DNA from: Gammaproteobacteria bacterium
GTDB lineage: Bacteria > Pseudomonadota > Gammaproteobacteria > Tenderiales > Tenderiaceae
Assembly: GCA_021731365.1 (NCBI GenBank)
Contig: JAKFXL010000036.1
Span: forward strand, 2,503-66,502
Direction: 5' to 3'
DNA length: 64,000 nt
Shown here: positions 31,853-63,153 of the stretch, piece after piece
How the letters are laid out: each line of letters opens with the position of its first letter
Position numbering within the stretch: position 1 is the first letter of the stretch
Notes under the pieces: generated by a model
Database searches by the model: none
What the model saw: only the letters and a program-made list of their open reading frames with translations
Told to the model about the DNA's origin: nothing
Made by a program: the position numbers and the translations under genes

Positions 31853-32032
31853 GGCTGGGTAATCAATCCGGTGCTGGAAAAACGCCAAATGATACCAGAA
31901 GTGGTGCGTTGGCTGAACGTGCCACTTCTGACCAATGTTATTCAGTGGCAGGGTTTGCCCGGCGAAATGGATTAAACTTATCCTGTTGCTCGCGGTTGGC
32001 GGCACGAATTTTCAATCTGGGGAGTGGGGATA

Positions 32033-32988
32033 TGTTGTTTGATGTTTTTAACGGTGATGCGGATGGCCTGTGTGCACTGCAGCAGTTTCGATTGGCCACA
32101 CCCGCCTCAGCCACGCTGGTGACAGGTGTAAAGCGAGACATCTCCCTGCTGAAGCGTGTTCAGGCCAGCGCCGGTGATGAGGTGGCGGTATTTGATATCT
32201 CCCTGGATAAAAATAGAGAGGCGCTACAGCGGTTGCTGGAACAGGGGGTGAGGGTTCGCTATTTTGATCATCACTTTGCCGGAGAGATTCCAGAGCATGA
32301 CAATATGGAGTCATACATCGATGTGGCAGCTGAGACCTGTACCAGCCTGATAGTTAACGGCTACTTAAAGGGGCGTTTTTGCGCATGGGCAGTGGTGGGG
32401 GCCTTTGGCGATAACCTGGATACCAGCGCTCGTCAGGCGGCGGCTGACCTGAAGCTGTCAGAGGCGCAGCTTGCCTCCCTGTGTGAGTTGGGGATCTGTT
32501 TGAACTACAACGGTTACGGCGCGGCGCTTGACGACCTCTTTTTTACACCGCAGCAGCTCGCTGAACGGATGCGTCCCCATCTCTCGCCGTTTGATTTTAT
32601 GGCGGCGGAGCCGGAACTGTTTGCCACGCTGCAAAACGGGGCCGAGCAGGATACCGCCAGGGCCAGGGCGGTGGCCCCGGCAGTGGCGTCGGACAACGTG
32701 GCGGTTTTTCTCTTCCCGGCCGAGCCGTGGGCGCGGCGGGTATCAGGCGTCTTTAGTAATGAGCTGGCAACGGCACACCCCAATCGTGCCCATGCGTTAT
32801 TGACGGCGTTGCCACAAGGGGGGTTTGTGGCCAGTGTGCGTGCCCCCTTAAACAACAAACAGGGTGCTGATGAGCTGTGCCGCGCCTTTGCCACCGGGGG
32901 CGGGCGCAAGGCGGCAGCGGGTATTAATGAGTTGCCAGAGAGTCAGTACACGACCTTTGTGAATGCGTTTCAGACGATGTACGGTTAG
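32033..32988 (+). CDS. DHH-family phosphoesterase-like protein (hypothetical)
   Basis: GGAG RBS then ATG 32033; 'FNGDADGLCA' and 'YFDHH' motifs resemble DHH motifs I and III. Confidence 0.5.
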
Positions 32989-33066
32989 CGGTTTTTATCT
33001 CATGTGGCCGGAGATGAGCGGCTATTGGAATTGACTTTGGTGCGAACTGATAGAGAGGGTGAAGCG

Positions 33067-33504
33067 ATGGTAGAGCAATATTCCCATATCCTGCTGGCGA
33101 CTGATCTTTTAGACGATAGTGAGGGGGTGGTGGCACGGGCGGCAGAGCTGGCGCAACGTTATAGCAGTCGGCTGAGTGTGATCCATGTGGTGGAGCAGGT
33201 ACCTGTCTATTTTGGCAGTGAGCTGGCGATGCCAGCGGTGGAACCTATTGAAATACAGCTGGTAGAGGTGGCGCGTGAAAAGATGGCGGCCCTGGCACAG
33301 TGGTTGGGCATTGATCCGGAGTGTTGTCATGTGGAGGTGGGTGCCACCAAGTCGGGAATACTGTCGTTTGCCGAGCGTGAACAGGTGACGTTGATTGTCA
33401 TCGGCAGCCACAGTCGCCATGGTCTGGGACGGCTGCTGGGGGCGACGGCTAAAAGCATCCTCAACGCTGCGGTGTGTGATGTCCTGGCGGTGAAGATCAA
33501 ATAG
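33067..33504 (+). CDS. universal stress protein (UspA-like)
   Basis: MVEQYSHILLATD..., C-terminal 'GSHSRHGLGRLLGATAKSIL'. Confidence 0.75.
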   Translation: MVEQYSHILLATDLLDDSEGVVARAAELAQRYSSRLSVIHVVEQVPVYFGSELAMPAVEPIEIQLVEVAREKMAALAQWLGIDPECCHVEVGATKSGILSFAEREQVTLIVIGSHSRHGLGRLLGATAKSILNAAVCDVLAVKIK

Positions 33505-44160: not shown

Positions 44161-46038
44161 ATGGCATTACTACAGATTAGTGAACCCGGCGAATCTACCG
44201 CCCCGCACCAGCATCGCTTGGCCGTCGGTATTGACCTGGGCACTACTAACTCCTTGGTGGCTACTGTGCGTAGCGGCGTAGCGGTTACCTTGCCTGGCCT
44301 GAATGGTGATTCCATGGTGCCGTCTGTGGTGCGTTACCATTCTGATGGTGGTATTGAAGTGGGTGAGTCCGCTCGTGCTGCTGCACCACAGGATCCCGAG
44401 AATACAATTATCTCTGTTAAACGGCTGATGGGGCGTAGTCTGGCTGATTTGAACCAGCAGGCGCAACGTTTCCCTTATGCGTTTGCAAAGACCGATTCCA
44501 GCGTGCCTCGTATTGTTACGGCGGCAGGAGAGGTGAGCGCGGTGGAGGTCTCGGCGGAAATTTTGAAGCTGTTGCGTCTGCGTGCCGAGGAGAGTCTGGC
44601 CGGTGAGTTGAGTGGTGCAGTGATTACGGTGCCCGCTTATTTTGATGATGCCCAACGTCAAGCGACCAAGGATGCGGCTCGTCTCGCCGGAATAAATGTG
44701 TTGCGCCTGTTGAATGAGCCGACTGCAGCGGCGGTTGCCTATGGGCTGGATCGTGGTTCGGAAGGTGTGCATGTTGTCTATGACCTGGGCGGAGGCACAT
44801 TTGATGTTTCGATTCTGCGCTTTACCCGTGGGGTATTTGAGGTCCTGGCGACGGCGGGAGACTCGGCGCTGGGGGGGGACGATTTTGATCATCTGCTGGC
44901 TCAATGGCTGATGGCGCAGGCGGGCATTGCTGATGACCTGGGTCATAAACAGTTGCGTGCGCTCCTGCATCAGGCCCGCGCCGTTAAAGAGCAGTTGAGC
45001 AGTGAGCTGGTGGTTGCTGTTGAGGTTGTACGTGCTGACGGTTCGATATGGGCGGGCGACATTGACCGGTCTACCTTTAATGAGATTATCACCCCGCTTG
45101 TCAAAAAAACCTTGTTACCTTGTCGCCGTACGCTGCGTGACTCGGGTGTGTCGTTGGAAGAGATTGCCGATGTGGTGATGGTGGGTGGCTCTACACGTGT
45201 GCCGTTGGTGCGCGAACAGGTCGGCCAGTTTTTCCAGTGCCAGCCACTGGTTGATATCGATCCCGATAAAGTAGTGGCCATAGGTGCGGCCATTCAGGCC
45301 GACATTCTGGTGGGCAATAAACCCGATAACGAGATGTTGCTACTGGATGTCATTCCGCTCTCCCTGGGGCTTGAGACCATGGGGGCACTGGTGGAAAAGG
45401 TGGTGCCACGGAACACAACCATTCCAACGACACGTGCCCAGGAGTTTACAACCTTTAAAGATGGTCAGACGGCAATGAGTATCCATGTATTGCAGGGCGA
45501 GCGTGAAATGGTGGACGATTGCCGTTCACTGGCGCGTTTTGAGCTGCGTGGTATCCCCGCCATGGTTGCCGGTGCAGCCCGCATTCTGGTCACGTTTCAG
45601 GTCGATGCGGATGGTTTGTTGAGTGTCAGTGCGGAAGAGACGGTGAGTGGTGTTCGTAGTAGCATCGAGGTGAAACCATCGTACGGTTTGCAGGAGAGCG
45701 AGATTGAAACGATGTTGCGCGACTCGTTCACCCATGCAAAGGAAGACATGAGCGTGCGTGCATTGCGCGAGCAGCAGGTGGATGCCGACCGTGTGCTGGT
45801 GTCGCTGGCGGCGGCACTGGCGGCTGATGGTGATGTGCTGTTATCAGCCACAGAGCGTGGTGTGATTGATGTTAATATCAACCAGTTGCAGCAGGCGCGT
45901 ATGGGAAGTGACATCCAGGCTATCAAACAGGCCATTGAAAATCTTGATCAGGTGACCGATAGCTACGCCCAGCGACGCATGGATGCCAGTGTTAAAAAGG
46001 TGCTCACAGGGCACCGGCTCGATGACTTTAAGGCATGA
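44161..46038 (+). CDS. hscA: chaperone HscA (Hsp70-type)
   Basis: start MALLQISEP; 'IDLGTTNS'. Confidence 0.95.
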
Positions 46039-59131: not shown

Positions 59132-60130
59132 TCAGCTCATTAACGCCCCAGCTAACGGACTAATCACCGCATTACCACCACGGTTCAATACATGAGTATA
59201 AATTTGCGTTGTCTTCACATCGCTATGCCCCAGTTGTTCCTGCACCGTACGGATATCGGCACCGCGTTGTAACAGATGGGTTGCAAACGAATGGCGCAAT
59301 GTATGGCAGGTAGCCTGCTTTTCAATACCCGCCTTTTTTACCGCAAGCTTCACCGCCCTCTGCAGACTCTTTTCATGCAAATGGTGGCGTCTAATCACAT
59401 CAGCCCTTGGATCTTGAGTGCGCTCCCCAGCGGGGAAAATATACTGCCAACGCCACTCGCGCGGTGCGTTTGGATATTTACGTGCCAAAGCATAAGGTAG
59501 ATACACCTCGCCATAGCCATCGGCTAAATCTTTCTCGTGCAGATTTTTAACGTACTGTAAATGTCGTTTTAACTGAATGGTAAGCTCATCTGCCAGTGTC
59601 ACAATACGATCCTTGCCACCTTTGCCATCAATCACAAAAATAGCATGGTGATCAAAATCCAGATGCATTACCCGTAATCTCAAACACTCCATTAGGCGCA
59701 GACCAGACCCATACATCAAACAGGCTGCTAGCCAATGTACACCACTTAGATTCTTCAATAACCGACTAACCTCATCGACCGTTAGCACCACAGGTAGTTT
59801 TTTTCTCTCCTTGGCCCGCACAGCCCCATTAATATCACCCAGTGGCTGCGCAAGTACATGCCGATACATAAATACCAACGCATTGAGTGCCTGATTCTGC
59901 GTGGCAGGTGCAACATTTCTCTTCACAGCTAAGTAAGTTAAAAAGGCACTAACCTCCATAGCCCCCATCTCCTTGGGATGGCGCTTATTGTTAAAAATAA
60001 TAAAACGCTTGATCCAGTCAACATAAGCATGCTCAGTTCTAATGCTGTAATGTTTGGTGCGGAGCACGTTTATTACACTTTCAAGAAATGGAGATGTTAT
60101 TTTTCTGCCTGAATTCATAAAGCCACCCAT
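59132..60130 (-). CDS. intI: integron integrase IntI (tyrosine recombinase)
   Basis: '[12 protein letters not shown]...RHP', IntI-specific insertion '[20 protein letters not shown]', catalytic '[12 protein letters not shown]...YTHV'; start taken at the Met at 60130 (alternatives 60118 or TTG 60148). Confidence 0.9.
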
Positions 60131-60135
60131 ATTGA

Positions 60136-60151
60136 CTGTATATAACAACAG
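60136..60151. promoter_or_regulatory. LexA box (CTGTATATAACAACAG) overlapping the intI promoter/start
   Basis: perfect CTGT-N8-ACAG palindrome, as described for SOS-controlled integron integrases. Confidence 0.75.
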
Positions 60152-60414
60152 TACTTAATATGAGAAGTAGCTGTCAAGCATGAAAAAGGACAGATTGGGG
60201 TATTTGGCATTATATGATTAAGTGGAATCTAATGATGGGATGAGAAAAATCTACCGATACCAAAGGTACAATCATTTAACTTTCATATGCTTATGGGTTA
60301 TATCCAGTTTTATTTTGTAGTTCAGACCAGAGTCGGGTATAAATAGACAAAAAAGGAAAGACCCCAAAGTGGGGTGTTTGATTACCCCACTTTGGGGTCC
60401 ATTAACTGTTAGCC
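60152..60414 (+). other. attI region (approximate), ending at a GTTAGCC core
   Basis: AT-rich region between intI and the first cassette; candidate crossover G/TT at 60408-60410. Confidence 0.4.
60360..60398. repeat. perfect 14-bp inverted repeat (ACCCCAAAGTGGGG-9 nt-CCCCACTTTGGGGT) within attI
   Basis: read directly from the sequence; lies 10 bp before the GTTAGCC core. Confidence 0.7.
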
Positions 60415-60447
60415 CCCTATTTTTAACCCACCACGAAAGGAAATAAT

Positions 60448-60963
60448 ATGAAACTGAAACTCACGTCACTCTCCCTCATGCTCTGCGCTGGCAGTGCAAT
60501 GGCTGACACAACAGTGCAAATGTCCATGGTCGATGCAAAGGGTGTTAGCGCTAGCGTTGGACAGGTATCAATCACTGAATCAAAGTACGGCATGGTGTTT
60601 TCGCCGTCACTGAAAGGGCTTCCCCCTGGGTTGCATGGGTTCCATCTGCACCAAAACCCAAGCTGTGAGCCGAAAGAGAAGGATGGGAAAATGGTTCCTG
60701 CGTTAGCGGCGGGGGGCCACTACGACCCAAGCGATTCTAAGCGCCATGACACTCCTTGGAGTGACGGTCATCTGGGTGATTTACCCGCACTCTTTGTGGA
60801 TGCAGAAGGCAATGCTAATCAACCTGTACTCGCCCCTCGCCTAAAGACGGCAGATCTTGCAAGTCGTTCGCTGATGGTGCATGTGGGCGGAGATAATCAT
60901 GCGGATCATCCTGCTCCGCTTGGTGGTGGCGGTGCGCGTATGGTATGCGGTGTTATCAAGTAA
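60448..60963 (+). CDS. sodC: periplasmic Cu/Zn superoxide dismutase (integron cassette 1)
   Basis: signal peptide; '[10 protein letters not shown]'; '[12 protein letters not shown]'; followed by attC. Confidence 0.9.
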
Positions 60964-60965
60964 AA

Positions 60966-61029
60966 GCCTAACTCTGCATTCGAGAGGGACGCGCCAAAAG
61001 CGGCGCGCCCCTCAATTTGAACGTTAGAA
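60966..61029 (+). other. attC site 1
   Basis: R'' GCCTAAC ... internal palindrome GGACGCGCC/GGCGCGCCC ... R' GTTAGAA. Confidence 0.6.
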
Positions 61030-61082
61030 GACTTCTTGGTTGTTAATTTTAATCTGTATTACCCATGAAAAGGGAGGCGGGG

Positions 61083-62120
61083 ATGAATTTTATAAAGCTA
61101 TGTATCGCCGGAGGAATTGCATTTATTGCTAATCAGGCTTTTGCTGATGATAAAGCAGAACTCAAAGATGTTAGGTTTGAAGGGACAGATTTAGAAATTA
61201 GCAATAAGTGCGAGGGGAATCCTGGCTGGCTATGTAATAGAGAAAGTAGACTACAAGCACATAAACCAAGCACTGTAGCTTGGGAATATACTGATCAAGA
61301 TGATGGTTCTCTTGAAGTTAATTACTCTCTCAGATACATGCTTGCCAGGCCTGACTGTTCTGTAGAAAGAGATAATGACCAACGAGAATGTATAAATGGT
61401 TGGTGGAAAAGGAATGAATGGTTTCTATCTTACTCTGGTAAGTTTGATTTCTATATGGGAACACGATATTCAGGTCCTGTTGTAAATAGAATTAGCAATC
61501 CAGCTCTTCACTGGAGAATTCACAATCCATCTTTCATGGGTGGCGTGGAGTGGCTAAATATAGCGCTGGAGCATAGATCAAATGGGCAAGTTACAGATTT
61601 TGACCTAAAAGACTCTAACGGAAATTACATTGCAGATCAGCGTTGGCAAGCCGGGGACAGAGCATATATTGATGGCATAAGCCGCGCCGCAAATTATTTT
61701 TCTATTGAAATTAAAGATGGTTATAAAACGGACACTACGGCATACAACTACTGGCTTAGTGCGAAAGCATATTTTACAGATGAATCCTTGGTTACATGGG
61801 GAGATAAGAAAGGATCGGATGTTAGGATTTTGGACTACGATGTACTTCGCCTAGCTTTTGTGGGAAATAAGTTTAAGGGTGAAAATAAGCAGTTTAAGCA
61901 GTTTGAATATGGGTTTGAATACACAATGGGAATGAAGGGGTTTGCCACTGATTCATTGGATGCTTCTTTATATTTTCCCTATGTATTCGGAAAAAGAACA
62001 TATTTCCCAATTAATTATTTCAAAGTCCACGTTGGGCCAATGAATGAACTGTCTAACTACACGGAGTCACAAACAAGCATTTATATAGGTATGAAACTGA
62101 ACCCATACCCATCATTTTAA
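61083..62120 (+). CDS. pldA: outer membrane phospholipase A (OMPLA), integron cassette 2
   Basis: RBS GGGAGG; signal peptide; active-site 'HRSNG'; C-terminal aromatic residue (…PSF); markedly AT-rich. Confidence 0.75.
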   Translation: MNFIKLCIAGGIAFIANQAFADDKAELKDVRFEGTDLEISNKCEGNPGWLCNRESRLQAHKPSTVAWEYTDQDDGSLEVNYSLRYMLARPDCSVERDNDQRECINGWWKRNEWFLSYSGKFDFYMGTRYSGPVVNRISNPALHWRIHNPSFMGGVEWLNIALEHRSNGQVTDFDLKDSNGNYIADQRWQAGDRAYIDGISRAANYFSIEIKDGYKTDTTAYNYWLSAKAYFTDESLVTWGDKKGSDVRILDYDVLRLAFVGNKFKGENKQFKQFEYGFEYTMGMKGFATDSLDASLYFPYVFGKRTYFPINYFKVHVGPMNELSNYTESQTSIYIGMKLNPYPSF

Positions 62121-62135
62121 CGGAATTAACACGTC

Positions 62136-62216
62136 TTCTAACAAGCGCGTGGAGTCGGACTCGCTACGTCGGCGCTTCGCGCCGATTCCGCTCGCCGCTC
62201 ACGCGAAGAGTTAGAA
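62136..62216 (+). other. attC site 2
   Basis: R'' TTCTAAC exactly complementary to R' GTTAGAA; GC-rich imperfect internal palindrome. Confidence 0.65.
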
Positions 62217-62563
62217 CGCAAAGGCACGTTAATAATTTCAGAGAAAGCTCGGCAGTCAGTTTAAGTTCGTAGCTCTCCCATGCTTCAGCATTGTTCGGTA
62301 TTAATCGGGTGTTTAGTATTTGTGCATCTAGAAACATTGAAAGGTGGTCACTTAATCATCTCGGGCATCTTGCTTGGTAGGCTCGCCACAGTTCAGCCAA
62401 AACCTTGCATTGTTCAAGGTTGGTGGTAAGTTAAACAGTATCGTATTTATTAAGGCCAATAGGCGGAAAGTGTGGAGGTCCACTTGAAGGAAAATCGTGG
62501 CGTTGTTTGGCAAGGAGGCGTATCAGTCCTTTCTAATATCCAATTCAATCAAAACATTTTGCT

Positions 62564-62668
62564 TTCTAACCAGCGCGGTCAAGCTGACAAATTTCCGCGT
62601 TCTTCGTTTGTGCTAAATAGCACAAGCCTCTCACCGCTCCAATTTGCAGCTTACCGCGAACGTTAGGT
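62564..62668 (+). other. attC site 3
   Basis: R''-L'' TTCTAAC-CAGCGCGGTCAAGCTG pairs with L'-R' CAGCTTACCGCGAAC-GTTAGGT, leaving one extrahelical base. Confidence 0.8.
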
Positions 62669-62676
62669 GCCCATAT

Positions 62677-63072
62677 ATGTCCACGCTCGAATCAATTAAT
62701 CGGCTCCTGTCAGTCGGCGCCACGCTCCTCGATCATGCAGCGGCGGAAATCCGCGACGCGAAGCTTGAGCCTGTTCGCGAGAACATTGAGAGTATTGGCA
62801 AGGCTTTGGCCGAGGTCTTTGAAATTCAGCACCAGATTTACAAGTTAAAACCTGAACTCACGCCCGAGCACCTAAAGCAGCCCAGTGAGCACTCTGCGGC
62901 CAATCGACTTCTCACCGAGTACATGTACAACGCCTCAGAATTCGAACTCGCTGGAAACATCGAACGAGCTGTCGCAATATTCCAAGAGTTCTTGGCGCTG
63001 GAGTCGTCGCCTCTGCATCGCGACATTGCAGCCGGTGAAATTGAAAGGCTTCGGAATGCCGCAGGCACCTAA
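62677..63072 (+). CDS. hypothetical alpha-helical protein (integron cassette 4)
   Basis: 131 aa, ATG just after the attC3 crossover; ends within the next attC. Confidence 0.5.
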   Translation: MSTLESINRLLSVGATLLDHAAAEIRDAKLEPVRENIESIGKALAEVFEIQHQIYKLKPELTPEHLKQPSEHSAANRLLTEYMYNASEFELAGNIERAVAIFQEFLALESSPLHRDIAAGEIERLRNAAGT

Positions 63073-63133
63073 CATGGCGCTCAACCTCGCTCCCTTCGGT
63101 CGCTGGACGGCGCTAAAGCGCCGCCGGTTAGCT
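63067..63133 (+). other. attC site 4
   Basis: R'' ACCTAAC ... GGCGCT/AGCGCC palindromic arms ... R' GTTAGCT (a second GTTAGCA lies 11 bp further on). Confidence 0.55.
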
Positions 63134-63153
63134 CTACGTTAGCAACTAGACTC

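Follow-up and report, generated by a model that had tools for sequence, protein, structure and literature searches.

Does the perfect palindrome in front of the integron integrase gene intI of this gammaproteobacterial chromosome serve as a LexA operator, and is the shuffling of gene cassettes at the locus then under the control of the SOS response? In 2009 Guerin and co-workers reportedly described a LexA/SOS operator on an integron-integrase promoter, with PintI1 being repressed by LexA. Co-regulation by CRP is known in Vibrio. A survey of intI promoters (Cambray et al. 2011, PMC3108266) describes LexA/SOS operators within a positional zone of -100 to +50 and finds an E. coli-type box in 56.6% of the promoters, no boxes being present in hosts that have no LexA or one that binds a different motif; some gammaproteobacterial families, the Chromatiaceae for example, are reported to be without LexA. 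Experimental precedent for SOS control of intI exists in V. cholerae, V. parahaemolyticus and class 1 integrons, and a 'classic operator organization' has been described for V. cholerae and the class 1 integrons (PMC3108266).

We report the analysis of a 64-kb stretch of DNA, called the window throughout, in which the parts of an integron are all present: intI, attI next to it and four or more cassettes bounded by attC sites (Table 1). We consider it likely that the palindrome is a beta/gamma-proteobacterial LexA operator, sited on the sigma-70 promoter that drives a functional integron integrase in the chromosome, a reading that we prefer because of the score of the site, its chance expectation, its position and conservation, the geometry of the -35 and -10 hexamers, the intact IntI, the turnover of cassettes and the experimental precedent. 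Since a LexA site would then stand on the promoter of an intact intI, DNA damage probably sets cassette shuffling in motion, as the original prediction had proposed. Arrangements of this kind have been on record since 2009 and are commonplace; what is new here is the host lineage and the integrase subclade, with no new principle.

The palindrome and the intI promoter

The site was originally described as a perfect CTGT-N8-ACAG at 60136-60151, and the 16-mer core CTGTATATAACAACAG is indeed present there on the + strand. Taken alone, the bare pattern is not significant: it has three matches in the 64-kb window where 0.87 are expected, and three or more were reached in 4 of 100 shuffles. The other two matches, at 45838 (in hscA) and 56020 (in a PBP-like gene), have G+C-rich spacers and score less than 8 bits. 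Because the bare pattern is weak evidence, 20-mers were scored with a LexA matrix made from 27 E. coli sites; the scores are approximate, and the motif is that of E. coli and may not be the host's.

On this matrix the full 20-mer scores 21.1 bits, which would rank it 11th among the 27 training sites (13.7-28.7 bits, median 21.5), and no other site in the window exceeds 12 bits, the second-best reaching 12.0. By the exact score distribution, chance should yield 0.003-0.03 sites of this score in 64 kb and about 7e-5 in a promoter zone of 150 nt (-100,+50), even with the local composition of 63% A+T; none of 60 Markov-random windows matched the observed score. The validated box of class 1 intI1, CTGTACAAAAAAACAG, obtains 17.0 bits on the same matrix, below the value found here. 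The palindrome, an A+T-rich spacer, TA/AC flanks and a score within the validated range are those of an E. coli-type LexA operator, and the full 20-mer is confirmed as significant, well beyond chance.

Table 1. Features of the intI promoter, the integrase gene and the attI-cassette region, in positions of the window
Feature	Positions	Strand	Basis or remark
LexA (SOS) box, 20-mer GACTGTATATAACAACAGTA	60134..60153	not assigned	matrix score; half-sites invariant in relatives
Candidate -35 of PintI, TTGACA	60172..60177	-	kept in most relatives
Candidate -10, AGTACT, 16-nt spacer	60155-60150	-	consensus geometry
Candidate -10, TACTGT, 18-nt spacer	60153-60148	-	consensus geometry
Shine-Dalgarno-like GGGTGG, 4 nt before ATG 60118	60123..60128	-	read from the sequence
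intI, integron integrase, 328 aa, intact	59132..60118	-	TIGR02249; start by homologue alignment
Candidate cassette promoter Pc, TTGTAG (60315-60320)-17-TATAAA (60338-60343)	60315..60343	+	conserved in L084 and L086
Inverted repeat, 17-bp stem, T-run on the minus strand	60359..60400	-	terminator-like, facing intI
attI crossover core GTTAGCC	60408..60414	+	strain comparison with L081/L082
First cassette: sodC CDS 60448-60963, attC 60966-61029 (GCCTAAC...GTTAGAA)	60415..61029	+	NF007628; attC search
Further cassettes	61030..63144	+	attC-like sites ~62136-62216 and ~62564-62668 (both identified by eye) and 63067-63144

Read on the minus strand, the promoter region runs TTGACA (60177-60172) - gctacttctcatatta - AGTACTGT... 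and holds two candidate -10 hexamers, each a weak match to the consensus (3/6). In the related loci L084, L086, L088, L089, L090, L092 and L093, TACTGT is preceded at 16-18 nt by TTGAC(A/T/G) or TTGCCC, and since a -35 is kept 16-18 nt upstream of (AG)TACTGT in most relatives, the -10 is placed on the promoter-distal half-site. We infer that either candidate (60155-60148) would overlap this half-site of the LexA box, and transcription of intI is predicted to start at about 60141-60143, inside the box. The original prediction had instead given the role of the -10 to TATATA on the minus strand. This hexamer does lie within the spacer of the box (60144-60139), but it is not kept in the relatives and has no usable -35 partner, and it is probably not the -10. 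Just upstream of the -35 sits a further block, TACCCCAA(T/A)CTGTCC at 60178-60200 (minus strand), which L084 shares with the window and L086 shares in part; this may represent an UP element or a second regulator's site.

The position of the box depends on where intI begins. The minus-strand open reading frame is listed as 59132-60148, and the three starts that had been put forward (TTG 60148, ATG 60130 and ATG 60118) all exist in frame on that strand. Homologues of 324-335 aa begin 4-6 residues before a conserved SSPFL motif, for which the counterpart here is ATG 60118, and a 328-aa version of IntI exists in the sequence cluster; at the position of the Shine-Dalgarno-like sequence the relatives carry GGAGG, GGGAGA or GGTGGG. 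TTG 60148 and ATG 60130 are ruled out by the homologue alignment, which favours ATG 60118. The box lies at -18 to -33 from this codon, within the (-100,+50) zone, and ends 17 nt before it, so that the earlier statement that the box overlaps the intI start would be true only for the unlikely TTG 60148. In the public record (P0003) the integrase is annotated with 275 aa from an internal Met, a mis-called start, where the homologue-supported product has 328 aa.

The product matches TIGR02249 over the full length of the profile with 483 bits against a cutoff of 265. The tyrosine-recombinase positions R157/R159, K176/K179, H282, R285, H308 and Y317 (numbering of the open reading frame) fall in invariant columns of an alignment with 24 homologues. 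From the full-length profile match, these intact recombinase columns and a first cassette that varies between strains (see below), the integrase is predicted to be functional.

Conservation of the box in related integrons

For close comparison we used the promoters of nine integrases that are 70-84% identical to the IntI of the window. A LexA box of 18.7-27.1 bits is found in seven of the nine, 10-24 nt upstream of the start codon, and ACTGT and ACAG alone are invariant among the columns of the promoter alignment, the spacer and flanks being variable. In L092 the corresponding sequence is CTGTACAAACAACAG, with an N7 spacer, a deletion of one base pair relative to CTGTACAAACACACAG of L090 that takes the score from 23.6 to -1.3 bits (L092 48-85 against L090 1572-1591). 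L094, from a Thiotrichales MAG, has no LexA box at its intI promoter and carries a SymE-toxin gene upstream of intI.

A more distant survey covered about 20 named IntI loci from among the matches listed in a scan with the peptides DIRTVQEQ and TTQIYTHV, a scan that returned mostly XerC/D-like genes and, among the matches listed, no relative of more than 57% identity. Boxes of 23-31 bits stand at the same place in Marinobacter, Marinomonas, Motiliproteus, Vibrio, one Pseudoalteromonas, Halieaceae, Oleiphilus, Bermanella and Alteromonadaceae, and two further Pseudoalteromonas loci have weaker boxes of 16-17 bits. Within the same survey no box was found in Luteimonas (Xanthomonadales), in a deltaproteobacterial MAG or in a Verrucomicrobiaceae MAG, which belong to clades with other LexA motifs. 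Over these distant loci the presence or absence of the box appears to track the LexA type of the host clade, and this matches the pattern of Cambray et al. 2011.

Copies from the same species are 100% identical in the promoter and are therefore uninformative on selection in the host. The orthologous promoter was also sought in sister genomes by way of Der; the contigs concerned (L095 and L097-L099) end before or inside intI.

attI, the cassettes and the history of the locus

An IntI with 100% identity over the recorded 275 aa is present on three other contigs; L081 and L082, two of these, share the chromosomal flank. The window and these two contigs have two single-base differences in the approximately 290 nt up to GTTAGCC and are unrelated beyond. 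Since the match stops at GTTAGCC, the first cassettes differ and the crossover point of attI is marked. The first cassette encodes a Gp49/HTH_37 toxin-antitoxin pair in L081/L082 and SodC in the window, with intI, its promoter and attI the same, and the finding of different first cassettes at the same attI in strains of identical intI indicates that the integrase has recently been active and the first cassette turned over. The SodC match to NF007628 scores 209 bits against a cutoff of 165. The sodC product is a periplasmic Cu/Zn superoxide dismutase whose 90%-identity cluster has 102 members, spread over many short contigs of metagenomic origin, which suggests that this cassette circulates widely.

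Between intI and attI, the sigma-70-like block that points into the cassettes and is taken as the candidate cassette promoter Pc recurs as TTGTAA-17-TATAAA in L084 and as TTGTGA-16-TATAAA in L086. Its start is predicted at about 60350, some 58 nt before the attI crossover and some 200 nt from the LexA box. The Pc of V. cholerae is independent of SOS control, its start lying 65 bp before attI (PMC3948777), and by analogy TTGTAG-17-TATAAA is likely to be a separate Pc that is probably outside LexA control. A second promoter-like site on the + strand, TTGACT (60132-60137)-18-TAATAT (60156-60161), has 9 of 12 matches and holds the LexA box between its hexamers.

The inverted repeat between the candidate Pc and attI is perfect, GACCCCAAAGTGGGGT-N8-ACCCCACTTTGGGGTC, has a fold energy of -33 kcal/mol and lies 8 nt from the attI core. 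L084 and L086 have it at an equal distance, conserved in sequence as well as in pairing, and in L081/L082 one arm has an uncompensated G>A change. Possible roles are those of a protein-binding element within attI, of an insulator against antisense read-through into intI or of a stem-loop at the 5' end of the cassette mRNA.

The chromosomal setting is given by the housekeeping genes of the window (mrp, pyrD, acnB, mutS, purEK, folD, the isc operon, and ndk through der), and the nearest named relative is Tenderia electrophaga (Gammaproteobacteria, Tenderiales), to which MutS is 75% identical. There is no lexA, recA or other SOS gene in the window, and tblastn with E. coli LexA and RecA gave no match in the window or in 100 fetched loci; two open reading frames, 31909-32988 (no family match) and 33004-33504 (a universal stress protein), were considered as recA or recX and rejected. 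A literature search on Tenderia and LexA returned nothing useful. In L097, L098 and L099, from genomes with 95.5% identity in der and the PBP-like gene, all DNA similarity ends 16 nt past the stop codon of the PBP-like gene (about 59005), and several MAG contigs end at the integron locus. At the same chromosomal site L098 has an integrase fragment that is only 64% identical in amino acids to the IntI of the window; given flanks of 95.5% identity, this is a different integron platform, exchanged at the locus. The platform of the window may thus have been acquired horizontally, and its box could be a legacy of the donor.

Alternative readings and comparison with known integrons

If the preferred reading holds, a LexA dimer on the 20-mer (60134-60153) would in undamaged cells lie over both the -10 (60155-60148) and the predicted start of transcription, and RNA polymerase would be kept off the TTGACA promoter, leaving intI off and the cassette array frozen. 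DNA damage, or the entry of single-stranded DNA, would give rise to RecA filaments and thereby to self-cleavage of LexA, which would free the promoter; IntI would then be made, and cassettes would be excised, captured at attI (60408-60414) and reordered. We infer the binding of LexA and the induction from the precedent of V. cholerae, V. parahaemolyticus and the class 1 integrons.

A horizontal history of the platform would allow another interpretation, in which the box is a relic that came with the acquired platform into a host that has no LexA, or a LexA of other specificity; the site would be intact but idle, with constitutive expression of intI driven by the TTGACA promoter. The platform turnover described above (an integrase of 64% identity between genomes of 95.5% identity in the flanks) speaks for it, as do the loss of LexA from some gammaproteobacterial families and the fact that boxes last for a while in incompatible hosts. 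It is also conceivable, though improbable, that the host lineage is without an E. coli-type LexA and that the conserved palindrome is read by a different repressor. Most Gammaproteobacteria, however, possess an E. coli-type LexA, as Erill and co-workers reportedly described in 2007. The box is moreover undegraded and high-scoring, where decay is visible in close relatives (the one-base-pair deletion of L092 and the boxless promoter of L094). The integrase, too, is intact, whereas loss of LexA control correlates, according to the survey, with inactivation of the integrase (PMC3108266). On balance we regard a relic as an unlikely, though not a negligible, explanation. Much less credit still is due to the idea that an A+T-rich promoter produced the palindrome by chance, or that some other regulator or IntI itself binds there, with no relation to LexA. 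The three occurrences of the bare pattern and the A+T content of the intergenic region are what one could cite in its favour, but the chance expectation in the promoter zone is very low even at the local composition, nothing but the half-sites is invariant when diverged promoters are aligned, the presence of the box follows the LexA motif of the host clade, and attI with its flanking conserved repeat lies 210-270 nt away from the box; we hold this to be very improbable.

A further possibility would add to the LexA operator rather than replace it. The box lies between the two hexamers of the divergent TTGACT-18-TAATAT, which a promoter scan picks out with its 9 of 12 matches, and the operator might therefore be bifunctional and control this + strand promoter as well, making sodC SOS-inducible too. 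This promoter, though, is conserved in no relative, the conserved TTGTAG-17-TATAAA nearer to attI is the better candidate for Pc, and the Pc of V. cholerae is free of SOS control, so that we think a double role of the operator improbable. If true, it would mean a species-specific promoter through which sodC is co-induced with the integrase by SOS, unlike the situation in V. cholerae.

Returning to the operator on intI itself, the original prediction that the arrangement is that of the SOS-induced integrases is supported by the matrix score, the intact IntI and the box at the same place in most relatives. The likeness to the class 1 PintI1 would extend through the whole order of elements, namely a -35, a spacer of 16-17 nt, a -10 that ends in the CT of CTGT, the box and 12-17 nt to the ATG; in PintI1 the layout is TTGCTG-17-TAGACT, of which the final CT opens CTGTACAAAAAAACAG, followed by 12 nt to the ATG. 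Both have the same type of CTGT-N8-ACAG motif, with the operator over the -10 in PintI1 and predicted to be so in the window. The two boxes differ, however, in sequence and in score (17.0 bits for class 1 against 21.1 bits in the window), the candidate -35 is a perfect TTGACA in the window and TTGCTG in PintI1, and the class 1 IntI is only 50.8% identical to that of the window. The integron of the window is chromosomal, whereas class 1 is found on a Tn402-type element, and the candidate Pc lies in the spacer between intI and attI in the window but inside intI in class 1.

With PintIA of V. cholerae and the Vibrionaceae the window shares a chromosomal integron, an E. coli-type box that lies partly over the -10 of the intI promoter, a predicted -10 in the window, and, as a candidate, a separate cassette promoter close to attI. 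The distance from the box to the start codon is about 41 nt in V. cholerae as against 17 nt here, the IntI of the window shares about 50% identity with one from Vibrio (Vibrio atypicus, L007), and only a short stretch of cassette array is visible in the window, compared with the superintegron of V. cholerae.

The preferred reading would extend LexA-controlled intI to the chromosomal integron of an uncultured gammaproteobacterial lineage near the Tenderiales, with an integrase of a subclade known almost only from metagenomes, and it agrees with the view in the literature that SOS control is an ancestral property of intI, retained wherever a compatible LexA exists. Of practical use are the fixed start of intI and the conserved promoter layout for the subclade, for which L092, with its shortened spacer, and L094, with no box, offer natural controls. 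The motif and its place within the (-100,+50) zone are the same as in the catalogue of 93 distinct intI LexA boxes of Cambray et al. 2011; neither the 16-mer of the window nor its reverse complement is in the supplementary files of that survey, in which the box of L086, CTGTATATAAACACAG, is present.
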